A stretch of 13,975 nt of DNA. Source: a virus. The stretch lies in IMG/VR virus record IMGVR_UViG_3300045256_000094; one strand, given 5' to 3'. The notes under the pieces were generated by a model. The model saw only the letters and a list, made by a program, of their open reading frames with translations, searched no databases and was not told the origin of the DNA. The stretch's first letter is position 1; every line of letters begins with the position of its first letter. The translations under genes and the position numbers were made by a program. Shown one piece after another: positions 872 to 13,975 of the stretch.

Positions 872-914
872 TCAAAAACTTGAGGCCGGGGGAAGTTTAA
901 TCCCCCGGCCCCTC
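872..914 (-). terminator. Rho-independent terminator downstream of the 242-aa gene. On the minus strand the stem is GAGGGGCCGGGGG-AUUAAACUU-CCCCCGGCCUC, followed by AAGUUUUUGA.
   Basis: A 9-11 bp GC-rich inverted repeat at 882-892 / 902-914 with a 9-nt loop. A run of five U follows on the minus strand (plus-strand aaaaa at 874-878), 23 nt after the stop at 937. Confidence 0.65.
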
Positions 915-936: not shown

Positions 937-1665
937 TCAGATCATGCTGACCTGGAACGGCTCGATGGTCCGCCCCCGGTAGAAGGTGAAGTATTTGTTC
1001 TCGTCGTTCATCTCGATGTCGAGGAACTGTTCGAACTCCTGCTTGGTACGGTCGTCGGTGGTCAGGCGGGAGAAGTCCCAATACCAGACCTGCCGGTGCG
1101 TCAGTTCGTTCTCCGTGACCTTGCCGTCCCCGTTCTCGTCCCGCATGGACGTGACCGTGGCCCCGTAGGCGTCTTTGGCGTCGTTCTTCCGCCAGAACTT
1201 CCACGGCTCGGGAAGCTTGTTGCCGTCGTCGTCCTCGTTGATCCAGAACTCGCCGGACGGGTCGCCCAGAATCTTCTCGTGGAAGTGCTGGTCGTACTCC
1301 ATCTCGTAGTAGAGCTTGTACATGCGGAACTCGAACCCGCCCTCCACGTCGTCGTTCGGGATCGCCCGTAGCCGAAGCCGGAGGGGCTTGGACGAGCCGA
1401 GCAGGACGCCCCGCAGGCAGTAGTCGGTGGAGAAGAACTTCTTCCGGCCGACTTCCGTCTGGTAGACCTCGATCTTGTCCACGAAGAAGTTGATCCCGCT
1501 GAACTCCAGGTCGCTGCTGATCGAGACGCTGACCCCGATCTTAGCCTTCAGCGGGTTGTGGTACTCGAACTCCGTCGGGCCGATGACCCGCTTGTTCTTC
1601 CCCGTGAGAATCTGCCACAGCGTCCGACCCTTGCCGTCCGCACTGACCACTTTCCCTTCGGCCAT
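937..1665 (-). CDS. Hypothetical protein, 242 aa, beginning MAEGKVVSADGKGRTLWQILTGKNKRV. No recognisable domain.
   Basis: This is the long minus ORF 937..1791 trimmed to the internal ATG at 1665. That ATG has a strong AAGGAGA Shine-Dalgarno site (rc of 1669-1680) 5 nt upstream. GC-rich third positions begin exactly at this ATG. Confidence 0.65.
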   Translation of the reverse strand: MAEGKVVSADGKGRTLWQILTGKNKRVIGPTEFEYHNPLKAKIGVSVSISSDLEFSGINFFVDKIEVYQTEVGRKKFFSTDYCLRGVLLGSSKPLRLRLRAIPNDDVEGGFEFRMYKLYYEMEYDQHFHEKILGDPSGEFWINEDDDGNKLPEPWKFWRKNDAKDAYGATVTSMRDENGDGKVTENELTHRQVWYWDFSRLTTDDRTKQEFEQFLDIEMNDENKYFTFYRGRTIEPFQVSMI

Positions 1666-2044
1666 TTTCGTCTCCTTCACTGAGTATGAGTCGCTTGAGC
1701 CAGTTGGTGTGCTTACCCCAGGATTTCCACACGCCTTTGGGATCACGGGTGTGCTTCGGCCGGTAAGCAAAGCCGTCGTTCCACGTCGCACAGACGATGA
1801 TCCCTGTTTGCTCCCGGAACCACTGCTCGAAGAGAGTTATCAGCAGTCCCGGCTTCCCAACACGGTATTCGTTGAACCCGGCCTCGTCTTGCAGCACATC
1901 CTCCGGTTCCCGAAGAAAGGGTGGTTGTGGGATGGCGTCTTCGTATTCGGCCCGGCGAGCGTAGTAGTTACTCAGACACTCGACCGTGACCAGATACTCG
2001 ACCCCATCAATCACCCTCGCTTCGGGAACCGGAGAAGGCGTCAT
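1541..2044 (-). CDS. Hypothetical protein, 167-aa ORF. Only the first ~125 aa (MTPSPVPEARVIDGVEYLV...KHTNWLKRLILSEGDE) look coding. The last ~42 codons overlap the downstream gene in a frame with AT-rich third positions.
   Basis: The ORF is in the track. Its start ATG at 2044 lies 1 nt from the upstream stop at 2046-2048 (translational coupling). Coding signal is lost after ~1666, where the next gene starts. This could be a 125-nt gene overlap or a frameshift. Confidence 0.45.
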   Translation of the reverse strand: MTPSPVPEARVIDGVEYLVTVECLSNYYARRAEYEDAIPQPPFLREPEDVLQDEAGFNEYRVGKPGLLITLFEQWFREQTGIIVCATWNDGFAYRPKHTRDPKGVWKSWGKHTNWLKRLILSEGDENGRRESGQCGRQGSDAVADSHGEEQAGHRPDGVRVPQPAEG

Positions 2045-2045
2045 G

Positions 2046-3197
2046 TTAGCTCCCGATGCGTTTGACGAAGATCACGTTGAACAGGAAGATCGCCCCGATG
2101 ATAACAACGACCCCGAGGCAAATCCAGCCCAAGATGCTCCACGCCACGCCACCACCGCCGCTCCCGGTCGCCGGGCCGGACGTGTGGACGACCCGCACGT
2201 TCGGATTGTACACAGACTCGATGTAGTCCTGGTCGTACATCAGGGTCGGGTTGTCGTTGAACTCCGGGTCAACGTAGCCGGGGTTCCGGGCGTAGTTCTG
2301 CCGCTCCAGGGCGGCGATCCGGGCACGCACTTCGCCGTCTTGCAGCCCCCGCTCGTAGGCCGCTTGGTCAATGTTGTAGCGGTTGTGGTAGAACCAGTAC
2401 GCCCGCCGCTCCGCACTCCACTCCATCATCATGTACCAGAACGGGCTGCTGTACCCGCCACCGACGAAGATCACCGGCTGACTCTGGTAGTAGCTGTACG
2501 GGTGGCTGTAGTGGTAGTGGTGAACGTGCTTCACCGTGTAGTTGTACCGAACCTCCGGGTCCAGATCACGGCTCGGCCGGTTGCGAATCGTCTCGACGGA
2601 CGGAGCCTTCGGGTCAATCTTCACTTCCTTACCGTCCGGTGCCTTGTAGCTCGGCCGGGGCGGTGCCGTGGCCTTCGCCGTCTCCTCGTAGGTCCGCTTG
2701 CTGGCCTCTTCCCGGTTGGCCCGAGCCTTCTCGTCGTTGCTGTTCGTACCGGGCCGCTTGCTGCTGCCCGGAGGCGAAGACGGCGGCGGCGCACCCGCAC
2801 TCGGCGAACCGAACTTGCCCTTGTTGTCGTCCTTCTTGTCATCCGGCTTCTTGCTGTCGCCGCCACCACTGTTCGGCGAACCGAACTTGCCGCCACTCGG
2901 AGGCGGGGTCGTGGGTTGCTTCGGCGGATCGGCGGGCTTCTTACTGTCGCCCCCGCTGTTCGGCGAGCCGAACTTGCCGCCACTCGGAGGCGGGGTCGTG
3001 GGTTGCTTCGGCGGGTCAGGCTTCTGGCTGCTGCTACTGCCCGGCGAGCCGAACTTGCTACCGCTACCGCCGCTGCTGGCCGGAGGCGGTGAGCTTTGCC
3101 CGCCCGGCTTTTTGCTTCCGCTCTGGGCATCGGCGTAGCCGCCCAGCATCGCCATGCAGCCCATCAGGGCGATGCACAGTCCGATCCGTCGTAACAT
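2046..3197 (-). CDS. Secreted, tail-anchored repeat protein, 383 aa. It has an N-terminal signal peptide (MLRRIGLCIALMGCMAMLGGYADA) and four KFGSP-containing P/T/G/S-rich repeats, including two near-identical 29-aa units. A Tyr/His/Trp-rich globular region follows, and the protein ends in a C-terminal transmembrane helix (VAWSILGWICLGVVVIIGAIFLFNVIF).
   Basis: The ORF is in the track. A GGAGGT Shine-Dalgarno site sits 6 nt upstream of ATG 3197. Both hydrophobic segments are visible in the translation. A low-complexity repeat region is encoded by 87-bp tandem DNA repeats. Confidence 0.75.
   Translation of the reverse strand: MLRRIGLCIALMGCMAMLGGYADAQSGSKKPGGQSSPPPASSGGSGSKFGSPGSSSSQKPDPPKQPTTPPPSGGKFGSPNSGGDSKKPADPPKQPTTPPPSGGKFGSPNSGGGDSKKPDDKKDDNKGKFGSPSAGAPPPSSPPGSSKRPGTNSNDEKARANREEASKRTYEETAKATAPPRPSYKAPDGKEVKIDPKAPSVETIRNRPSRDLDPEVRYNYTVKHVHHYHYSHPYSYYQSQPVIFVGGGYSSPFWYMMMEWSAERRAYWFYHNRYNIDQAAYERGLQDGEVRARIAALERQNYARNPGYVDPEFNDNPTLMYDQDYIESVYNPNVRVVHTSGPATGSGGGGVAWSILGWICLGVVVIIGAIFLFNVIFVKRIGS
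2841..3014. repeat. Tandem repeat of two 87-bp copies (2841-2927 and 2928-3014). A 54-nt core (cggcga[a/g]ccgaacttgccgccactcggaggcggggtcgtgggttgcttcggcgg) is identical except at 1 nt. Degenerate partial copies occur at about 2800-2830 and 3040-3070.
   Basis: I aligned the copies directly from the sequence. The repeat encodes the 29-aa unit KPxDPPKQPTTPPPSGGKFGSPNSGG(G)DSK of the repeat protein. Confidence 0.85.
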
Positions 3198-3228: not shown

Positions 3229-3260
3229 AATCTAGCAAGACGGAACAGTCAAGCTAGATT
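3229..3260. promoter_or_regulatory. Perfect 8-bp inverted repeat AATCTAGC-N16-GCTAGATT. It overlaps the stop codon of the ArgRS-like gene and lies 32 nt upstream of the repeat-protein start. It is not followed by a U-run.
   Basis: Read from the sequence: aatctagc at 3229-3236 and gctagatt at 3253-3260. The stop TAG of the upstream gene is at 3254-3256. It could be an operator or an RNA-processing/attenuating hairpin within the operon. Confidence 0.4.
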
Positions 3261-4480
3261 CGTTCCAAGCGAAACATGCCGAGTTTCCACATTGCATTTT
3301 GCAACGTGATAAGGGCTGTGGCGATGGCGTACTTGAACCCTCGGCGACCACCTTGAATCCGCTCCCGCTCGTAAGCCGACCCCATGAGACGGGCAAGCTC
3401 GTGACAGTAGTTCGCCAGCCCGGCCACATCCTTTGACTCGACGGCGTGTTTCCACCAGTAGGTCAGGTACGAGGACATCCCGAGTAACTTCACGTCGTCG
3501 TCGGTCAGGTCGAGCGGAGCATTCGGCGTATCGGTCATGCCGTGGCAAGCCGACTGCACACGAGTCTCGGTGTAGGTAATGTACATCCCCGGCGAGTCCA
3601 CCTTCGTCCACTTTTTGACTTCAAACTTCACGTCTGAAGACCGGCTCACGGACAACAGGTTCCAAGCCAGGACGTTCCACGCCAGCTTGCGGCGTTCGGT
3701 CGGCGACTCGATGGGCGGGTCGAACCCGTCCTCGATCATCCGCATGGCGTCGTCTGCACTGAGGGCAGTGCCCTCACGAGACTTCATCTTCTTCCCATCG
3801 TCCCCCAGGACGAGGCCCATAGGTAGATGATACCGCTCCAAGCCCAGGTTGTAAAAGTGTTCCTTCTGCTCCATGCCGGTAACGTACCACAACTCCCCCT
3901 CCACCATCTTGCGGAAGGCAAGGTCGTAGTAGGCGTAAAGCGGACTCCCGTCCGCCCGCTTTAGGATCACTGGCGTGGAGGGGTGGGCGTCGTCCCACAT
4001 CCACGGCTGCTCGTGTTCTTCGAGTAGAGGACTGCCCTCTTCCTGATACGTCCGGCGATGGCACGGCACGATGTCGTCCGGCATCAGCACGTCGTAGTAA
4101 AGCTTCGGCTTATAGCCGACGAAATTACACCACCGCTCGAAGCCGGTCAGGGCGAAGCTCTTTACACCGAGCGATGCCCCCAACAGAGCAACCGGCTGGG
4201 AATACGGCAACACTCGTGAGAGCGAGTGGGCCACGGCGAGGTTCCGCAGGTGCCCGACGTGGAGAGCCTTGTTCAAATTTGGACTGAAACCGTCGATCAG
4301 CATCCCCGCACCGGGGTTGGTCGGTGCGGCCTCGGGCCACCGATAGTTTTCCGCAGTGAAGTGGTAGTTGTGGAACCACTTCTGAGGATCGTGGCGGTAG
4401 CCCTTCGCACCCTCAAGCGGCTGGTTCGTGGTCACGCCGAAACCGTGCTTCGTCGGCATCGGGCGTAGCTTCGACTCCAT
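3254..4480 (-). CDS. Arginyl-tRNA synthetase paralogue (class I aaRS), 408 aa. It has the catalytic core and DALR-like anticodon-binding region but lacks the N-terminal Add-1 domain.
   Basis: HIGH-type motif as in ArgRS: 'SPNLNKALHVGHLRNLAVAHSL' (ArgRS 'SANPTGPLHVGHLR'). ArgRS-specific Arg-binding block: 'KRADGSPLYAYYDLAFRK...LWYVTGMEQKEHFYNL' (compare DG(t)xLYxTRDIA...IYVvgxxQxxHFxQL). KMSKS-equivalent: 'GDDGKKMKSREG'. The C-terminal helical region (LTDDDVKLLGMSSYLTYWWKHAVE...) is DALR-like. Only ~70 aa precede HVGH, against ~120 or more in canonical ArgRS. GAGGAGAA Shine-Dalgarno site upstream of ATG 4480. Confidence 0.8.
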   Translation of the reverse strand: MESKLRPMPTKHGFGVTTNQPLEGAKGYRHDPQKWFHNYHFTAENYRWPEAAPTNPGAGMLIDGFSPNLNKALHVGHLRNLAVAHSLSRVLPYSQPVALLGASLGVKSFALTGFERWCNFVGYKPKLYYDVLMPDDIVPCHRRTYQEEGSPLLEEHEQPWMWDDAHPSTPVILKRADGSPLYAYYDLAFRKMVEGELWYVTGMEQKEHFYNLGLERYHLPMGLVLGDDGKKMKSREGTALSADDAMRMIEDGFDPPIESPTERRKLAWNVLAWNLLSVSRSSDVKFEVKKWTKVDSPGMYITYTETRVQSACHGMTDTPNAPLDLTDDDVKLLGMSSYLTYWWKHAVESKDVAGLANYCHELARLMGSAYERERIQGGRRGFKYAIATALITLQNAMWKLGMFRLERI

Positions 4481-4506
4481 CGGCGGTTCTCCTCTCAGGT
4501 TTAGGC

Positions 4507-4535
4507 ATTCTACCAGGGAAGAAACCCTCTGTAAA
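4507..4535 (-). promoter_or_regulatory. Sigma70-like promoter for the ArgRS-paralogue operon: -35 TTTACA (4535-4530), 17-nt spacer, -10 TAGAAT (4512-4507).
   Basis: Read on the minus strand of the 120-bp divergent intergenic region. The predicted start of transcription is about 20 nt upstream of ATG 4480, leaving room for the GAGGAG Shine-Dalgarno site. Confidence 0.5.
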
Positions 4536-4600: not shown

Positions 4601-6076
4601 ATGACAGATGTTAAGAATGTAATCAAGATAGAGAACGTCTACAGTTGGCTAATCACGGAGAACATGGGCCTCCGGGAAACGCTTTGTAAGGCTCTCAAAG
4701 TCCCCGCCAAGAACTACTGGCATTCTACCGCATACAAACGCAAGATTTGGGACGGACACATCGAGTTCTTTAAGAAGAACTCGGGCATGTTCTACTCCGG
4801 GCTTCTCCCCGAAGTCTGCGGCATCCTCTCGCACCTTAACGAACCCTACACCATCGCCGACCACCGAGGGGCGATCCAGTGGGGGCAAAAGGTCGTTGAC
4901 GAGAACTTCCTTCAGCAGTTCCAGAAGAAGGGCAGCAAGCCGCTCACCCTCTACGACTACCAAGTGGAGTACGTCAACCTCGCCCTGAAGTACGGCCGGG
5001 GCGTCATCACCGCCCCCACGGGTGCCGGTAAGACGAACGTCCTGATCTCGATCCTGAAGTGCCTGCCGCCCAAGACGCCGGTCCTCTTCATGACGAAGGG
5101 TGCGGGTCTGGTCGATCAGAACTACGCCGAGATGCTTCAGTGGGGCGTGCCGAACCTGGGCCGCTACTACGGGAAGTACAAAGAGCCGAACTACGTCATG
5201 TGCTGCACCATCCACCAGGACACGCTCAAGAGCATCGACAAGCTCTTGCCGAAGTTCAAGGTGCTGATCGTGGACGAGGTTCACGAAGCCATGAGCGACA
5301 CGCCCATCGCCGCCTACAAGAAGATGAAGGAGGCGACGTACCGCTTCGGGTTCTCGGCCACCCCGTTCAAGTACACGTCGAAGGACAACAAGGGCAACGA
5401 GATTTCGAAAGATAAGGAACACAAGTACAACGTCAAGGCTCACTTCGGGGCCAACTTCAAGCTGTCCTGCACGCCGTCGGGCAAGCTGACGACGAAAGAC
5501 TTGCAGGAGCGGGGCATCCTGTCGCCGAGCCGCTGCACGATTTACCCGATCAACGAGCCGGACAACATCCAGCACGAGCCGTATGGGGACGCTGTTACTC
5601 TTGGCATCTCCAACAACATGTACTTCCACCAAGTCATCATGCGACTGGCCCGGAAGCTGGAGGGGCGCACCCTCATCATGGTGGAACGGATCGACCAGGG
5701 GAACTACCTCAAGTCCCTGATCCCCGAGGCACACTGGATCAAGGGCGACGTGGCGGTTGGCGACCGGGCCACGATCTTCGGCGAGTTGAAGTACAGCGGT
5801 GAGAAGGTGATCTGTATCGCTATGCGACAGATCGTCACCGCCGGTATCAACGTGTTCGTCCACAACCTGATTAACGCATCAGGCGGCAACGCCGAACACA
5901 ACATCATTCAGCAGATGGGTCGTGGGCTGCGGTCCGCCTCAGACAAGAACGTGCTGGACTTCTACGACTTCCTGTTCACCACCAACGCCTACCTGCGTGA
6001 CCACTCCCTGAACCGCATCCGGGTTCTGGAGAGCGAGGGCCACGAGATCACCGTCAAAGAGAAGATCGACTTCTAA
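4601..6076 (+). CDS. Superfamily-2 DEAD/DEAH-box-type helicase, 491 aa (ResIII / phage UvsW-like architecture).
   Basis: Motif I 'ITAPTGAGKT'; Ia 'LFMTKGAGLVDQ'; II 'LIVDEVHEA' (DEVH); III 'SATP'; V 'TAGINV'; VI 'QQMGRGLR'. It is the only plus-strand gene. Its first ~300 nt are noticeably AT-richer than the surroundings. Confidence 0.85.
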   Translation: MTDVKNVIKIENVYSWLITENMGLRETLCKALKVPAKNYWHSTAYKRKIWDGHIEFFKKNSGMFYSGLLPEVCGILSHLNEPYTIADHRGAIQWGQKVVDENFLQQFQKKGSKPLTLYDYQVEYVNLALKYGRGVITAPTGAGKTNVLISILKCLPPKTPVLFMTKGAGLVDQNYAEMLQWGVPNLGRYYGKYKEPNYVMCCTIHQDTLKSIDKLLPKFKVLIVDEVHEAMSDTPIAAYKKMKEATYRFGFSATPFKYTSKDNKGNEISKDKEHKYNVKAHFGANFKLSCTPSGKLTTKDLQERGILSPSRCTIYPINEPDNIQHEPYGDAVTLGISNNMYFHQVIMRLARKLEGRTLIMVERIDQGNYLKSLIPEAHWIKGDVAVGDRATIFGELKYSGEKVICIAMRQIVTAGINVFVHNLINASGGNAEHNIIQQMGRGLRSASDKNVLDFYDFLFTTNAYLRDHSLNRIRVLESEGHEITVKEKIDF

Positions 6077-6828: not shown

Positions 6829-7605
6829 TCACGCCACGGCGTAGTCTTCGCAGAACTTACGGTCCACCCGCCAGTAGTCGGGCATGAACTTCGGCTTCAT
6901 CGTGTCGAGGAAGTGCTGCCTCCAGAACTTAGCGAACTCGTCGAAGTCCTTCACCTGGGCCATCACCTGCGCACCGAACCCCTGCCCCGAAGACGGAGGC
7001 TTGGGCTTCAGCTTCGCCAGTTCTTTGATCTCGGCGTCCGTTGGGACGTGCCCCAGGGCTTCCTGCAACAACAGCTTCATCACCACGATCCGGCCCGGCG
7101 GAATCTTGTCGCCGTGTTCCGTCAGTGAACGGGCCAGCCCCCGGACGTACATCTCGTCCCGGAAGTTCTCCTTCATCCCCGAAAGCGGGATGCCATACAA
7201 CTCCGAGAAGTGCTTCCGCTTCTTCTGCGACTCCTCTTCGTACTTGGTGTGGCACGAGGTACAGGTCGGCAGAACGTCGTGGCTGTTGTGCTTCTTGTGT
7301 GAGTTCGGCATGTGCCGCAGGAACGACCACGGCACGACATGGTGCCGGTTCAGGTCTTCCGTGGCCCCGCAGACGACGCAGTGGTTCGGCTTGGGCAACA
7401 GCGTCCAGGGGTCTTTCATCCCCCGACGGCCGCTCGGCTCGAACTTCAGCTTGATGGTGATCGGGTCGTCGGCCACCTTGTCGGCCAGCCCACGCTCCAA
7501 ATACCAGTCGATCCGCTTCTTCTCGCACCGGCCGGTAGGTTGGCCGTCCGGTGCGAGGATCAAGCAGTTGTCAAACAGAACTTGAGTGGCTGCGTTGTTT
7601 GGCAT
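6829..7605 (-). CDS. HNH-motif (beta-beta-alpha-Me) nuclease-like protein, 258 aa.
   Basis: 'CVVCGATEDLNRHHVVPWSFLRHMPNSHKKHNSHDVLPTCTSCH' fits the pattern CxxC...HH..P....N....CxxCH. The ATG at 7605 is coupled to the AAA+ stop, with TAATGGAGTATG carrying a GGAG between. Confidence 0.55.
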   Translation of the reverse strand: MPNNAATQVLFDNCLILAPDGQPTGRCEKKRIDWYLERGLADKVADDPITIKLKFEPSGRRGMKDPWTLLPKPNHCVVCGATEDLNRHHVVPWSFLRHMPNSHKKHNSHDVLPTCTSCHTKYEEESQKKRKHFSELYGIPLSGMKENFRDEMYVRGLARSLTEHGDKIPPGRIVVMKLLLQEALGHVPTDAEIKELAKLKPKPPSSGQGFGAQVMAQVKDFDEFAKFWRQHFLDTMKPKFMPDYWRVDRKFCEDYAVA

Positions 7606-9968: not shown

Positions 9969-10324
9969 TTCTTCTCCTCGTTGTTCGCTTTCACTTGCTC
10001 GTAGCGGATGTCCACCCTGATCCGTTGGTAGATGGACATGTAGAGAACGGCCGAGGCCCAGGTTACGCCGTGGGCCAGCACATACCCCCGCCAGTCATCA
10101 TACCACACCTGATGGCGGAATACGAGCATCATCAGGAGCGTGAACCAGAACGAGAAGCAGTATTCGCAGGTCGGGATGTAGCACACCTTCCGTACCAAAT
10201 ACGGGAGGGTGTGATCCTTGCACCACGGCTGGAAGTAGTTCTTCCGCAGGTCGCTGAAGACTTCTTCCTTCGTGGCAGCCCACGAGAACACCGCCACCAT
10301 CGCCCCGATGATGATCGCTTCCAT
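9965..10324 (-). CDS. Polytopic inner-membrane protein, 119 aa (MEAIIIGAMVAVFSWAATKEEVF...). Three or four predicted transmembrane helices.
   Basis: The track ORF 9965..10414 trimmed to the ATG at 10324-10322, which overlaps the Pnk stop (TAATG). The extra upstream 30 codons would overlap Pnk. There are several hydrophobic stretches (IIIGAMVAVFSWAA; CFSFWFTLLMMLVF; VLAHGVTWASAVLYMSIY). Confidence 0.6.
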   Translation of the reverse strand: MEAIIIGAMVAVFSWAATKEEVFSDLRKNYFQPWCKDHTLPYLVRKVCYIPTCEYCFSFWFTLLMMLVFRHQVWYDDWRGYVLAHGVTWASAVLYMSIYQRIRVDIRYEQVKANNEEKK

Positions 10325-11271
10325 TAGTTGAAGAACTCCTCGGTGTGCATGTACTTGAACCCGCACCGGGCAGCAGCCGTCTCGTCCGTCTTCTGGTCCC
10401 CGACGAACAAGCACTTCGCCGGGTTCAGCTTGTACGTCTCGATCATCAGTGCCCCGATACCGGGGTGCGGCTTCCGGCAGTAGCAGTTTACCGGCGGGAT
10501 GTTATGAGGACAGAAGAAAAATGGAATATCCATCCCCAGCAGGGCGTTCGTCTTCTTGAACGCCTTGATGACGTTCTCCTCGGTGCAATGCTTCTTGGCG
10601 ATCCCGCTCTGGTTCGACCAACCGAGAACGTGATCCGGCTTGAAGTCGTCGATGTACTTCTTGATCCGCTCGGCACGCCCCGGCAGCAGGACGACTTCCT
10701 CCTCGCACGTCGGGAAGTCGAACTTCGACCCGGCGGGCGTGTCCCGGAGGTTGCCGTCGTAGTCGAGGATCAGTGCGCTGTTCTTGTACTCCGGCCCCCA
10801 GACCCGCTTGAAGTCCCGCTCAACCACGCTGGAGAACCCCTCGCCGGTGCGGGGCTTTTCGAACAGCTTTCGGTAGTTGAACAACGCCACCGGCGGGAAG
10901 TGGTTCGGGTTCTTGGTCGTCTTGAAATCCTCGGGCATGAGGAGCTTGCCTGTTTGGCGGATCATCCGCAGACAGGCGTTGAGTTGTGCGTCCTCGAAGC
11001 TCGTGCTGAGCCAGACGCAGTTGACCGGGATTTTGTTATCCTTCCCGACCTTGATGACCGACGCCCGGCTCTTGGCGTCCGGGTAGGTGTTGTCGAGAAT
11101 GAAGAGATTGCCGCCCTTCTTGATCCGCCGTTCGAGTTCCTGGGCCACGCCCTCCAGCGTCCCGCCCATCTCGTCCCGGTTGAGCCGGTCATACCCCTTC
11201 GCAACGTACTCCGCTGCGATGGTGGACTTGCCCGAAGCGTTGTAACCCAGAAGGACGACAATCTCGCTCAT
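10324..11271 (-). CDS. pnk: Polynucleotide 5'-kinase / 3'-phosphatase of the bacteriophage T4 Pnk type, 315 aa. N-terminal P-loop kinase, C-terminal HAD/DxDGT phosphatase.
   Basis: P-loop 'LLGYNASGKST' at residues 8-17 (T4 'TIGCPGSGKST'). 'NRDE' at 31-34 (T4 catalytic 'NRDD'). 'ILDNTY' (T4 'IISDTN'). HAD motif I 'ALILDYDGNLR' with Asp170 (T4 'AVIFDVDGTLA', Asp165). C-terminal 'VGDQKTDETAA' is a HAD motif IV-like element. The start ATG at 11271 has a GAGGT Shine-Dalgarno site. The track ORF extends further upstream into the neighbouring gene. Confidence 0.85.
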   Translation of the reverse strand: MSEIVVLLGYNASGKSTIAAEYVAKGYDRLNRDEMGGTLEGVAQELERRIKKGGNLFILDNTYPDAKSRASVIKVGKDNKIPVNCVWLSTSFEDAQLNACLRMIRQTGKLLMPEDFKTTKNPNHFPPVALFNYRKLFEKPRTGEGFSSVVERDFKRVWGPEYKNSALILDYDGNLRDTPAGSKFDFPTCEEEVVLLPGRAERIKKYIDDFKPDHVLGWSNQSGIAKKHCTEENVIKAFKKTNALLGMDIPFFFCPHNIPPVNCYCRKPHPGIGALMIETYKLNPAKCLFVGDQKTDETAAARCGFKYMHTEEFFN

Positions 11272-11273
11272 GA

Positions 11274-11609
11274 CTACCTCGGTTTCACTAAGTCGTAGTG
11301 GTAAGCCCGATCCGTCTCCACACCGTCTTCGGACAGCCCGATGCCGGGTTTCGGCATCTTGTACTTGGCGTCCTTCTCGTACTTCGTCTTCGTGTTGAAG
11401 TAGAAGTGGCGTGTCTCCACGCCTTCCTGAACCTTGAAGTGGATGACGACCTTTTCGGGCATCCACCCGTTGACGACCGGGACTTTGAAGTCCAGGCCGT
11501 CAACCTTCACATACTCCACCGAGTCGATCTCGCTGTCCAGGTGGTAACTTGACTGCGGGTTTGACACCACCCCCAATGTGAGGGCCAGGGTCAAGAGCAT
11601 TCCTTGCAT
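11274..11609 (-). CDS. Small secreted protein, 111 aa (signal peptide MQGMLLTLALTLGVVSNPQS...).
   Basis: The track ORF 11274..11801 trimmed to the ATG at 11609, which has an AAGGAGAAGG Shine-Dalgarno site immediately upstream and overlapping the ABC ATPase stop. It has an N-terminal hydrophobic signal sequence and a hydrophilic Lys/Tyr-rich mature part. Confidence 0.55.
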   Translation of the reverse strand: MQGMLLTLALTLGVVSNPQSSYHLDSEIDSVEYVKVDGLDFKVPVVNGWMPEKVVIHFKVQEGVETRHFYFNTKTKYEKDAKYKMPKPGIGLSEDGVETDRAYHYDLVKPR

Positions 11610-11620
11610 CCTTCTCCTTG

Positions 11621-12526
11621 TTAGACAACACTGACCTTCGAGTTCCAGAAGGTTCGCCCGACTTCGGGGATGATCGTCTCGTTCTGGTCGAACACGATCT
11701 TCCTCAACTCGGCCTTCTGGTCGGCGAACCGACTGAAGTCCCTCGGGTCGTCCGGGTGAAAGACCGGAGCGGGTTGATCGTACACGATTGTGGCCCCACA
11801 TTCAACTCCCCGTTCCTTCATCGTGGGGCACGTCCAGTAGCGGCTCAGCCCAACCACCCGGTCGGCGAGGTAGAACGCCTCGTTGAGTTCGTGCGTGACG
11901 AACACCACCGTGTACGGTGGCGGCAGACCCGCCTTCTTCGCCGTCAGGTTGTCCTGGTAGAGCCGCAACAGCAGGTGTTGCAGGTCTTCACGGGTCGCCT
12001 CGTCGAGCGCACCGAACGGCTCGTCGAGCAAGAGAATCTTCGGCTTCATAATCAACGCCTGGGCGATGCTCACCCGCTGACGCTGACCACCCGATAGTTG
12101 GGTTGGGTAACAGTCCATCGACCCGTCCAGATCGAAGTCCGTCAACATCTGCTTGGCTTCAGCCCGGTACTTCCGTTTCAGGTCACGCAGCATGAACGGG
12201 CGGAACACCCGGCCGAGGAAGCTCGTTTGGTCGAGGATCGGCCCGACGGCCACGTTGTCGAGGGCGGTGAGGAACGGGAACAGGGTGTACTGCTGGTACA
12301 CGATCCCGCAGTCCCGGCTCGGCCCGATAACTTCCTTCCCGTCCACCATGATCGCCCCTTCCATCGGCGGGTCGGTGCCGAGTATGGCCCGGAGCAGGGT
12401 GGACTTGCCGCAGCCGCTCGGCCCGACCAGGGCGACGAACTGCCCGGCGTCCACGTCGAGGTTGCAGTGGTGAAGCACCCGCTTCGTCTTGAACCAGTGG
12501 TTAACGTGCGTGCAACGTAACAGCAT
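11621..12526 (-). CDS. ABC transporter ATP-binding protein, NitT/TauT (nitrate/sulfonate/taurine) family, 301 aa.
   Basis: Walker A 'GPSGCGKST'; Q-loop; ABC signature 'LSGGQRQR'; Walker B 'ILLLDEPFGALD'; H-loop 'VTHE'. AGGAGAAG Shine-Dalgarno site upstream of ATG 12526. Confidence 0.9.
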   Translation of the reverse strand: MLLRCTHVNHWFKTKRVLHHCNLDVDAGQFVALVGPSGCGKSTLLRAILGTDPPMEGAIMVDGKEVIGPSRDCGIVYQQYTLFPFLTALDNVAVGPILDQTSFLGRVFRPFMLRDLKRKYRAEAKQMLTDFDLDGSMDCYPTQLSGGQRQRVSIAQALIMKPKILLLDEPFGALDEATREDLQHLLLRLYQDNLTAKKAGLPPPYTVVFVTHELNEAFYLADRVVGLSRYWTCPTMKERGVECGATIVYDQPAPVFHPDDPRDFSRFADQKAELRKIVFDQNETIIPEVGRTFWNSKVSVV

Positions 12527-12554
12527 CTTGCTTCTCCTGTGGTTTGGCGTTGAG

Positions 12555-13382
12555 TTACTTCCCGTTCTCGAACCACGGAGACACCTTGTCCCGCAGCTTC
12601 AGCAGCGACCAGTCGAGGACGTACCCCAGCAGGCCGAGGACGATGATGTAGTTGTACACAATGTTCATGTGGCTCATGCGGCTCTCGATCCGTAGCCGGT
12701 AGCCGATGCCCACGTTCGCACTCGCCCACTCGGCTGCGATTAGGAACACCATCGCCGGACCGACGGCCAGTCGCACCGACTCCACCACCCGTGGGAAGAT
12801 CATCCGCAGGATGACGTTCCACACTACCTCGAAGTTGCTGGCACCCAGCGTGTACGCCTTGTTCACCAACTCGTCCGGCACGTCGTACTTGGCGCTCTGG
12901 TACACGGTCATGGTCAGAGCCGGGATGATGCCGAAGGCGATCATCATCACGAACATCTTGAACTCAGTGCCGAACAGGATGAAGAACACGGCGAGCATGG
13001 CCGTCGGCGGGATTTTCGAGAAGAAACTGAGGACGGGATGGAACAGTGCCTCGATCTGGGCGAAGCACGCCATCAGTAAACCCACCAGCAGCGAGAAGGC
13101 GATACCAAGTGCCATCCCCGCCGTGTAGCGGTAGCCCGTGGCCTGCACGTCCTCCCAGAGCGGGATCGTGTGGGGCGGTGACTTGCTGGGGCTGGTGATC
13201 TCCAGCAGTCCCTTGTAGATGTCCACGACGCCCGGCATCGTGGTGTCCTTCGGGTTCTGCTCGTGCTGTCGGATCGACAGGAACTCGTAGAAGGCAAACA
13301 AGACCAGCACCGACACGATCCCGAGGACTACTTGGGTCGTCTTGGAGATGGGCTTGCGAATGACTAACTTTTTGGGTCGCAT
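12555..13382 (-). CDS. ABC transporter permease (BPD_transp_1; TauC/SsuC/NrtB-like), 275 aa.
   Basis: About six hydrophobic helices. EAA-like loop 'AYTLGASNFEVVWNVILRMIFP'. GGAGG Shine-Dalgarno site 6 nt upstream of ATG 13382. Confidence 0.85.
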   Translation of the reverse strand: MRPKKLVIRKPISKTTQVVLGIVSVLVLFAFYEFLSIRQHEQNPKDTTMPGVVDIYKGLLEITSPSKSPPHTIPLWEDVQATGYRYTAGMALGIAFSLLVGLLMACFAQIEALFHPVLSFFSKIPPTAMLAVFFILFGTEFKMFVMMIAFGIIPALTMTVYQSAKYDVPDELVNKAYTLGASNFEVVWNVILRMIFPRVVESVRLAVGPAMVFLIAAEWASANVGIGYRLRIESRMSHMNIVYNYIIVLGLLGYVLDWSLLKLRDKVSPWFENGK

Positions 13383-13498: not shown

Positions 13499-13975
13499 TC
13501 ACTTCTTGGCAGGCCCGGCTTCCGCCGCCTTGATCCACTTGGCGGCGTCGAAGTTCAGGTCGGCCTGTGTGTCCCCGTATCCGATGCTCGGGGTCTTGGT
13601 GACGATCCCCCGCTCGACGCAGAACTTCACGATCTCGGTCTGCGTCTTACGGAACTGCTCGTCGTAGACGATGACGCCGATCTCGTCGTCGCCGTAGAAC
13701 TTCGTCTCCTTGCAGCACTGACGCATGTCGGCGGCGTTCAGGTTGCTGAACTTGGCCCCGAGGGCGACGAACGCCTCGTCGGTCGTCAGCATCTCGTTGG
13801 CCTTGTAGAACGTCTCGATGATGCAGCAGGCCGCACGGTCCCCGCCCGGCTTGGCGAGGCTGTCGGTGCTGAACGCCACGCTGTCCACGATCTCGCCGGG
13901 GATCAGGCTGCTGTCGGCGAGCCGGTGGGCCTTGTCGTTGGTGCGGAGCGTCTGGAGGACGAACGGGTTCCACAC
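13499..13975 (-). CDS. ABC transporter periplasmic substrate-binding protein (NMT1/THI5-like; SsuA/TauA/NrtA family), C-terminal ~158 aa. The N-terminus lies beyond the window end.
   Basis: The ORF is open to the window edge. Its composition and position directly upstream of a NitT/TauT permease and ATPase fit this call. I did not verify family-level motifs by eye beyond overall similarity. Confidence 0.65.
   Translation of the reverse strand: MWNPFVLQTLRTNDKAHRLADSSLIPGEIVDSVAFSTDSLAKPGGDRAACCIIETFYKANEMLTTDEAFVALGAKFSNLNAADMRQCCKETKFYGDDEIGVIVYDEQFRKTQTEIVKFCVERGIVTKTPSIGYGDTQADLNFDAAKWIKAAEAGPAKK

Follow-up and report, generated by a model that had tools for sequence, protein, structure and literature searches.

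GluQRS (YadB), a GluRS-like protein without an anticodon-binding domain, and the CysRS-like MshC are paralogues of aminoacyl-tRNA synthetases (aaRS) that share the class I Rossmann core and the ATP-dependent activation of an amino acid. Among viruses, the giant Mimiviridae encode their own arginyl-tRNA synthetase (ArgRS), which supplements the host translation apparatus, is full-length and eukaryote-like, and is not known in a reduced form of ~400 aa. Huge phages encode aaRS, tRNAs, ribosome recycling factor (RRF), peptidyl-tRNA hydrolase (PTH) and ribosomal proteins (Al-Shayeb et al. 2020, PMC7162821), and the role proposed for their aaRS is the charging of phage tRNA variants with host amino acids (PMC7162821). 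Arginine activation by ArgRS is normally tRNA-dependent (PMC2034488; PMC9976931), and the bacterial Add-1 domain reads the major identity element A20 (PMC9976931). The canonical bacterial enzyme is ArgS (TIGR00456), with solved structures such as E. coli 4oby/5b63, N. gonorrhoeae 6ao8 and T. thermophilus 1iq0. The subject of this report is the gene for a 408-aa ArgRS-like protein in IMG/VR virus record IMGVR_UViG_3300045256_000094, a stretch of 13,975 nt analysed at its full length and referred to as the window.

This gene probably encodes a miniaturised (408 aa instead of ~577 aa), catalytically competent class Ia ArgRS of a huge (jumbo/mega) bacteriophage that would charge tRNA. The protein is apparently intact though reduced, and its compact family is a distinct and uncharacterised ArgRS lineage of very large bacteriophages. 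The protein resembles canonical ArgS in its Rossmann core, HIGH motif, HIGH-loop lysine and KMSKS-type loop, in an arginine pocket built from the same residues (D, N, H, Y, D and Q), and in its stem-contact fold and helical DALR anticodon-binding domain. It differs in size (408 aa compared with 550-630 aa), in having no detectable PF03485 domain, ~76 aa fewer insertions and no equivalent of R324, in being only ~21-22 % identical, and in being phage-encoded and placed in a clade of its own. With the aaRS described from huge phages it shares both setting and proposed role; however, it lies far under the TIGR00456 cut-off and is not nested among the sampled cellular ArgRS. Unlike MshC and GluQRS, it keeps ArgRS-specific substrate residues together with the anticodon-binding domain, and it has relatives that are linked to tRNA-Arg genes.

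Motifs and predicted fold of the compact protein

The gene and the conserved segments of its product are as follows.

3254..4480, minus strand: coding sequence of the compact ArgRS (408 aa), an intact open reading frame (ORF) with an ATG start
4331..4480, minus strand: N-terminal beta stub, residues 1-50, in place of the ~100-aa Add-1 domain and carrying F36-H37-N38-Y39
4244..4294, minus strand: HIGH region, residues 63-79 (D63, S66, N68, K71, H74-V-G-H77, R79), aligned to E. coli D118, A121, N123, K126 and H129-H132
3854..3958, minus strand: arginine-pocket block, residues 175-209, reading D177-G-S-P-L-Y182-A-Y-Y-D186-L-A ... Y199-V-T-G-M-E-Q205-K-E-H-F, aligned to E. coli ArgRS with hhalign
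3770..3799, minus strand: KMSKS-type loop D-G-K-K-M-K-S-R-E-G, residues 228-237, aligned to E. coli G-K-D-G-K-P-F-K-T-R-A-G
3257..3718, minus strand: C-terminal helical DALR-type anticodon-binding domain, residues ~255-408, located by DALR_1, profile alignment and model helices

The original prediction had read this ORF as an ArgRS paralogue with the hallmarks HVGHLRN, DGSxLYxxxDLA...YVTGxxQxxHF, KMKSR and a DALR-like C-terminus; the ORF and every one of these motifs are present, and the C-terminus is helical. Its estimates of size were also close: 73 residues precede the HIGH motif where ~70 had been given, and the deficit, put at ~170 aa relative to housekeeping ArgRS, is 169 aa when E. coli ArgRS is the reference. 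The ArgRS motifs survive formal profile searches, which also reveal how strongly the protein has diverged. TIGR00456 (argS) matches the window protein at E 4.3e-22, and Pfam tRNA-synt_1d (PF00750) passes its gathering cut-off (32.4 bits, with 23.3 required), although the match spans residues 61-91 only; PF03485 was undetected, as had been expected. DALR_1 is found over residues 318-405 at E 0.003, under its gathering cut-off, and NF002446 at a score of 48.7, which does not reach the cut-off of 399. Among PDB sequences, phmmer with the window protein returned ArgRS only (best E 1.2e-8), as did a family profile of 120 sequences (E 8.5e-22 to 6e-10). Judged by these scores, the resemblance to ArgRS is not due to chance.

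Profile-profile and multiple alignments equate D63, S66, N68, H77, Y182, D186 and Q205 of the window protein with D118, A121, N123, H132, Y313, D317 and Q341 of E. coli ArgRS, in which the arginine-binding residues have been established by crystallography and mutagenesis (PMC3956977). By the residue roles given there (PMC3956977), the HIGH region contains the ATP site, the main-chain contacts to arginine and, in D63, the guanidinium contact. Further downstream, G-M-Y-I-T-Y303-T-x-x-R307 corresponds to E. coli A-P-Y-M-Q-Y462-A-Y-T-R466 with the residues of the Y-x-x-x-R motif kept, and the profile alignment to ArgRS extends to the C-terminus of the window protein. K71 is the equivalent of E. 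coli K126; a catalytic role for this HIGH-loop lysine was reportedly described by Sekine et al. in 2001.

A search of 5.8 billion proteins yielded 439 relatives, and conservation was counted in an alignment of 120 family members at 44-79 % identity. The family has two compact subclades, A, to which the window protein belongs, and B, which is 25-30 % identical to A. Thirty-two positions are invariant in the 120-member alignment, among them D63, N68, K71, H77, R79, Y182, Q205, K231, S234, R235, Y303 and R307, and H74 and D186 are conserved in at least 90 % of the relatives. Clade A, clade B and canonical ArgRS have 22 positions in common at which conservation reaches 80 % or more in each group, and the window protein matches the consensus at every one of them. 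Shared conserved positions lie in the anticodon-binding domain (L276, Y303, R307, S310, Y370, L400 and G401), and R235 and G237 of the KMSKS-type loop are likewise conserved across the compact clades and canonical ArgRS.

A protein that binds tRNA-Arg without charging it, either as a shield or decoy against host anticodon nucleases or by sequestering host tRNA-Arg, could also have kept the anticodon-binding domain, and RNA-repair genes occur in the window's lineage (a Pnkp-like gene at 10324-11466 and an RNA ligase gene in the related contig L053). However, strict conservation of the ATP and arginine sites across the 120 sequences is unexpected for a pure binder, and this explanation is regarded as very improbable.

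An AlphaFold2 model built from the 120-sequence alignment (pLDDT 95.3, pTM 0.93) has helices spanning residues 260-399. In a Foldseek search with the model, ArgRS structures occupy the first 20 places without exception (E 1.7e-16 to 3.8e-13; query-normalised TM-score 0.63-0.78), followed by GluRS, MetRS and CysRS at E values of at least 5e-9. The predicted fold is thus closest to ArgRS among solved structures. Of the 169 residues missing relative to E. coli ArgRS, the N-terminus accounts for ~55, the insertions of the catalytic domain for ~76 and the C-terminal half for ~38; the ~76-aa loss sits between HIGH and the DGxxxY block, where the insertion domains are found.

The compact family and its N-terminal stub

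The best 120 of the 439 relatives are nearly all 384-460 aa long and 41-79 % identical over the full length, and many are encoded on contigs of 0.15-0.69 Mb. When the family profile was compared with 1.84 billion cluster representatives, 122 proteins matched at E <= 1e-30. The top ~110 of these matches are mostly compact proteins of 360-470 aa aligned in a single stretch, alongside shorter fragments and a handful of longer fusions, whereas canonical ArgRS (540-590 aa, matched in two stretches) start only near 145 bits. In one fusion, P0146 (1077 aa), the compact ArgRS forms the C-terminal third (residues 685-1077); its 684-aa N-terminal part has no Pfam match, and a Pfam scan of the extra parts of fused and longer relatives was in general uninformative.

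In neighbour-joining analysis of 368 alignment columns from 39 compact and 34 canonical sequences, one branch separates all compact proteins from the canonical ArgRS in 100/100 bootstraps. A separate clade, for which the original prediction had proposed to look, is therefore recovered with respect to the sampled canonical ArgRS, and clade B is itself monophyletic in 100/100 bootstraps. Identity between compact and canonical proteins is 21-22 %. The clades can be told apart by their N-termini, which read IRPxPxKxGVGF...YRYEQVGRYHNYHVT in clade A and MKIDINKIKTTPxxxGFNFCVFG...SGPYTNIIL in clade B.

The original prediction held that the Add-1 domain is missing. This is correct insofar as a canonical Add-1 domain is undetectable; however, the N-terminus is not empty, as a conserved beta stub of ~45 aa remains that is homologous between the two compact clades (E 4.7e-5). 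When isolated N-termini were compared by hhalign with eight canonical Add-1 sequences, clade B reached E 0.033 and clade A E 0.34, neither of them significant beside the 0.15-0.16 of reversed controls. A profile comparison that also takes in the HIGH region aligns SGPYTNII of the clade-B N-terminus onto GPGFINIF. In the model the stub folds into a sheet of three strands, and residues 29-40 make up a hairpin. MAFFT alignment of 73 sequences puts the stub motif G-x-[YF]-x-N-[aromatic or aliphatic], which is F36-x-N38 in the window protein, on E. coli F82-I-N84. The E. coli site is a Tyr/Phe-Asn motif on the floor of the A20 pocket, which is made by the antiparallel strands beta3 and beta4 (PMC3956977).

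The extent of structural alignment points in the same direction. Full-length ArgRS structures align with 375-381 residues of the model, compared with 325 for 3fnr, a chain of 449 residues that is apparently without an N-terminal domain. This gap in alignment length is indirect, but would fit a stub that partly superposes on Add-1. The resemblance to Add-1 is confined to the level of this motif; hypothetically, the stub may represent a vestigial A20 pocket, with F36-x-N38 as its remnant.

Huge-phage setting

The window gene order is ABC permease, ABC ATPase, Pnkp-like kinase/phosphatase, AAA ATPase, HNH-like protein, helicase, ArgRS-like protein, repeat protein and a ~245-aa protein. The features around the compact ArgRS gene are listed here.

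11621-13382 and possibly also 13499-13975, minus strand: ABC-transporter ATPase and TauC/SsuC/NtrB-like permease, kept in L009, L053 and L057
10324-11466, minus strand: bifunctional Pnkp-like polynucleotide kinase (AAA_33) and HAD phosphatase
6829-7605, minus strand: HNH/DUF968-like protein of 258 aa
6073-6816, minus strand: GT2 glycosyltransferase, between the helicase and HNH-like genes
4601-6076, divergent from the ArgRS-like gene: helicase
4507..4535, minus strand: sigma-70-like promoter match TTTACA-17-TAGAAT, TG-extended (consensus scan, pattern match only)
4487..4496, minus strand: ribosome-binding site GAGAGGAGAA, with GGAG 8 nt 5' of the ATG, read from the sequence
2046..3197, minus strand: downstream co-oriented gene for a 383-aa protein, from its translation
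937..1791, minus strand: second downstream gene, an ORF with no function assigned, given for context only
882..912, minus strand: intrinsic-terminator-like hairpin (12-bp stem, 10 GC pairs) closing the three-gene unit

The same gene order recurs in the IMG/VR uncultivated virus genome L009, in JGI contigs L056 and L057 and in the 693-kb ENA contig L053, which beyond the shared block carries a gp32-like gene, an ADP-ribosylglycohydrolase and an RNA ligase. The helicase that the original prediction placed next to the ArgRS-like gene is present, in divergent orientation, and matches 2,123 phage records, the best of which is a 595-kb uncultured phage at 44 % identity. Elsewhere in the family the surroundings consist of tiny ORFs of no assigned function, homing endonucleases, tRNA arrays, RRF, rpL7/L12, PTH2 and undersized aaRS-like ORFs. 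Because of the synteny with L009 and L053, the phage matches of the helicase and the phage-type neighbourhoods of the relatives, the window is a fragment of a huge phage and not a bacterial operon.

The distribution of the family is in keeping with this. Scanning with the single sequence found no relatives among genomes that represent 185,579 bacterial and archaeal species, and an alignment-based scan of the same genomes found only 8 loci, all in metagenome-assembled genomes (MAGs). IMG/VR contains 44 loci, many on contigs of 187-675 kb, and in the GenBank phage collection family members occur in the uncultured phages LR745206 (634 kb) and LR756504 (636 kb). Neither of these two phages yielded a canonical ArgRS in a tblastn search with the E. 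coli enzyme; across the phage collection, the same query returned mostly host-like full-length ArgRS on small unverified contigs.

A host-derived housekeeping argS, short but ordinary and located on a bacterial chromosome, would be compatible with the ABC-transporter genes of the window and with the 8 loci in bacteria-labelled MAGs. However, the ABC genes belong to a syntenic block that recurs in phage-like contigs (IMG/VR and the 693-kb contig), hardly any family member turned up in the scan of representative genomes of 185,579 species, the neighbourhoods are those of small ORFs of no assigned function, homing endonucleases and tRNA arrays, and the MAG matches include contigs of 375 kb and 522 kb with phage-like tRNA arrays. 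This origin is extremely unlikely. The assumption of a cellular genome that lay behind the original prediction has accordingly been abandoned in view of the synteny with IMG/VR and 693-kb contigs and the family members in 634-kb and 636-kb phages, while its statement that this is not a housekeeping argS is borne out.

Two of the MAG contigs that carry a compact ArgRS are L003 (375 kb, labelled 'Bacteroidota') and L008 (522 kb, labelled 'Ignavibacteriaceae'); L003 has a dense tRNA array in which four tRNA-Arg genes lie directly upstream of the compact ArgRS gene. Both contigs are probably huge-phage genomes mis-binned as bacteria.

Several other genes of the syntenic block are of separate interest. 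The ABC genes look like a phage-borne ABC importer, that is, an auxiliary metabolic gene set. In L053 (20977-21281), CinA and CTP_transf_like (NMNAT-like) genes adjoin the kinase gene, and an RNA ligase gene is located ~10 kb past the ArgRS gene. Together, the Pnkp-like, RNA ligase, CinA and NMNAT-like genes suggest RNA repair and NAD-related counter-defence, and it may be speculated that the Pnkp-like gene of the window lineage and the RNA ligase of L053 belong to a wider tRNA-maintenance setting. The GT2 gene is missing from all syntenic relatives (L009, L053, L056 and L057). Homologues of the 258-aa HNH/DUF968-like protein (33-35 % identity) are found near clade-B ArgRS genes in the otherwise unrelated L017 (6559-7308) and L028 (14667-15386), and this protein may be a mobile homing endonuclease.

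The promoter that had been proposed at 4535-4507 coincides exactly with the TG-extended match TTTACA-17-TAGAAT; the consensus scan gives 3 promoter-type sites in the region against 0.7 expected. The predicted transcription unit would comprise the ArgRS-like gene, the gene for the 383-aa protein and one further ORF. The original prediction of an operon with a repeat protein and two unknown proteins downstream is upheld for the repeat protein, but only one other ORF (937-1791) precedes the terminator at 912-882. The 383-aa protein (2046-3197) has a signal peptide, three copies of a P/T/G-rich repeat KQPTTPPPSGGKFGSPNSGG, a Tyr/His-rich C-terminal domain and a C-terminal transmembrane helix, in agreement with its earlier description as a tail-anchored repeat protein, and matches nothing in Pfam or PHROG. 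The gene at 937-1791 probably starts at M43 (nt 1665), which gives ~242 aa; homologues of its product in L053 and L056 are 241-249 aa long.

tRNA linkage, gene neighbours and function

An association with tRNA genes was examined in 110 non-redundant loci of the family, a set enlarged by 79 metagenome loci and cleared of redundancy, by shuffling the labels within each locus 200,000 times. In clade B, tRNA-Arg is the nearest tRNA gene in 15 of the 25 tRNA-bearing loci, where 4.9 are expected and none of the 200,000 shuffles reaches 15; tRNA-Arg accounts for 24/65 tRNAs within 2 kb of the ArgRS gene but for 7/177 farther away (Fisher 3e-10). In clade A the corresponding proportions are 2/20 within 2 kb and 5/37 farther away (Fisher 0.79). 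An earlier analysis had pooled both clades; the family-wide adjacency that it gave was discarded, as after enlargement, removal of redundancy and reassignment of two misassigned loci the signal holds for clade B only. In the clade-B loci L003, L038, L050 and L051, clusters of 2-4 tRNA-Arg genes abut the compact ArgRS gene. Among 24 nearby tRNA-Arg genes inspected, 20 show G18-G19-A20 directly and 2 more apparently do so after correct three-G reading, and all 24 have C35; they therefore carry the standard bacterial identity set (PMC9976931).

Other translation genes are found in these surroundings. A PTH2-type peptidyl-tRNA hydrolase (Pfam E 3.5e-26) is among the neighbours of the compact ArgRS in six loci, three from each clade, for example at L085 7825-8301, and the clade-A member P0015 is found among other aaRS-like genes, RRF and tRNA-Arg. 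Undersized aaRS-like ORFs accompany RRF and tRNAs near compact ArgRS genes of huge-phage contigs (L054 564-7023; L068 13837-14517), with tRNA-synt_1b products of 197, 226 and 368 aa and a tRNA-synt_2b product of 237 aa; miniaturisation may be general among phage synthetases. CUA-anticodon tRNAs, called as tRNA-Pyl by ARAGORN, are located at L019 17325-17400 and L028 4581-4652. These are probably amber-suppressor tRNAs and hint at stop-codon recoding. A 284-aa protein of metallo-beta-lactamase fold (Lactamase_B_2, weakly Apyc1-like) adjoins the ArgRS gene in 8 clade-B loci, for example at L148 11222-12076.

ORFs within 4 kb of the ArgRS gene were clustered for 48 clade-A and 63 clade-B loci. 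No conserved partner gene emerged, as no neighbour family is present in more than 10/48 clade-A or 8/63 clade-B loci, and the compact ArgRS therefore behaves as a stand-alone module, as expected of a synthetase. The helicase, HNH-like, repeat and ~245-aa proteins are restricted to one lineage of 8-10 loci; within clade A, a repeat-protein homologue follows the ArgRS gene in 8/48 loci and a homologue of the 937-1791 product occurs in 8/48. The proposed operon with a secreted repeat protein thus exists, in one phage lineage (8-10 of the 48 clade-A loci), but does not carry the functional weight placed on it, since a lineage-specific partner is uninformative on the substrate of the enzyme.

These counts bear directly on the ligase that the original prediction favoured, an ArgRS paralogue recruited in the manner of MshC or GluQRS to attach arginine to a small molecule, a protein or a nucleic-acid base. 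Its reduced architecture with loss of canonical Add-1, a score well under the argS cut-off and the absence of significant tRNA-Arg linkage in clade A are what such a ligase might show. However, the whole anticodon-binding domain and the conserved motifs are kept, the sister clade is tied to tRNA-Arg genes, and tRNA is normally required by ArgRS to activate arginine (PMC2034488; PMC9976931). The anticodon module of the window protein is neither lost nor replaced and its fold is no closer to a paralogue of this type, and no link to biosynthetic, modification or acceptor-related genes is conserved in the 48 clade-A and 63 clade-B loci. A non-tRNA arginine ligase is thus highly unlikely, and the idea is not supported. 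The phage-type second ArgRS, which had been offered as an alternative, is the reading that is supported, given the huge-phage location, the separate clade, the intact arginine pocket and the anticodon-binding domain.

A true ArgRS could also feed Arg-tRNA-Arg into a non-ribosomal reaction, in which a phage transferase that depends on aminoacyl-tRNA would, for example, modify DNA, protein or the cell envelope, much as Mom uses Gly-tRNA. A phage enzyme that performs tRNA-dependent DNA hypermodification has been documented (PMC13219725), and genes for a GT2 glycosyltransferase and for a repeat protein targeted to the envelope lie near the ArgRS gene in the window. Yet no gene of the GNAT, Fem or L/F-transferase type is among the conserved neighbours, the GT2 gene is confined to the window among its syntenic relatives, and the recurrent neighbours are translational (tRNAs, PTH2, RRF and other aaRS), which makes this use of the product improbable.

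Several observations weigh against a tRNA-charging ArgRS in the window. In clade A, tRNA-Arg is the nearest tRNA gene in 2 of 11 loci with 1.07 expected (P 0.28), and ARAGORN finds no tRNA gene in the window itself. The TIGR00456 score of 78.2 bits does not reach the equivalog cut-off of 261.65, and PF03485 (Arg_tRNA_synt_N, Add-1) has no match in the window protein or in six relatives. The residue that props D118 in E. coli, R324, is not kept, as its equivalent is V193. Finally, the tree is a neighbour-joining tree with a limited canonical sample, in which long-branch effects are possible. Because clade A shows no significant tRNA-Arg linkage, unlike clade B, it may have been repurposed, either to activate arginine as before but pass it to an acceptor other than a tRNA-Arg of translation (DNA, a protein, a component of the envelope or an RNA that resembles tRNA), or to supply Arg-tRNA solely to a non-ribosomal transferase; this is considered very unlikely. 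Charging of tRNA remains the preferred reading for clade A because the active site and the anticodon-binding domain are conserved and ancestry is shared with clade B.

Under tRNA charging, the compact ArgRS would during infection bind tRNA-Arg through its retained anticodon-binding domain, and possibly also hold it by a vestigial A20 pocket, F36-x-N38, in the beta stub. Arg-AMP would form only with tRNA bound, as in other ArgRS, followed by esterification of A76. The resulting Arg-tRNA-Arg would be supplied to phage translation, supplementing or bypassing the host ArgRS. The enzyme would do without an Add-1 domain of ~100 aa and without the insertions of the catalytic domain, and would act alone, without a conserved partner gene.

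Targeted searches of the literature on huge and jumbo phages returned no monophyletic ArgRS lineage of ~400 aa without canonical Add-1 and insertions. As the family lies far under the argS cut-off (78 compared with 262 bits), it would be missed by a census based on that cut-off, and counts of phage aaRS could be too low. Had clade A indeed been repurposed, it would be the first case of a ligase that descends from ArgRS and works outside translation, and it would be encoded by a phage. If active as a synthetase, the protein would be a naturally minimised ArgRS, ~30 % smaller than any structure-solved ArgRS found in these searches, and would define the minimum of an ArgRS that is required for tRNA-dependent arginine activation. 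It would also offer a compact synthetase for engineering, possibly orthogonal to the host enzyme. Huge phages would then own a long-diverged synthetase lineage of their own (~100 clusters at 50 % identity) rather than recent copies of host genes.

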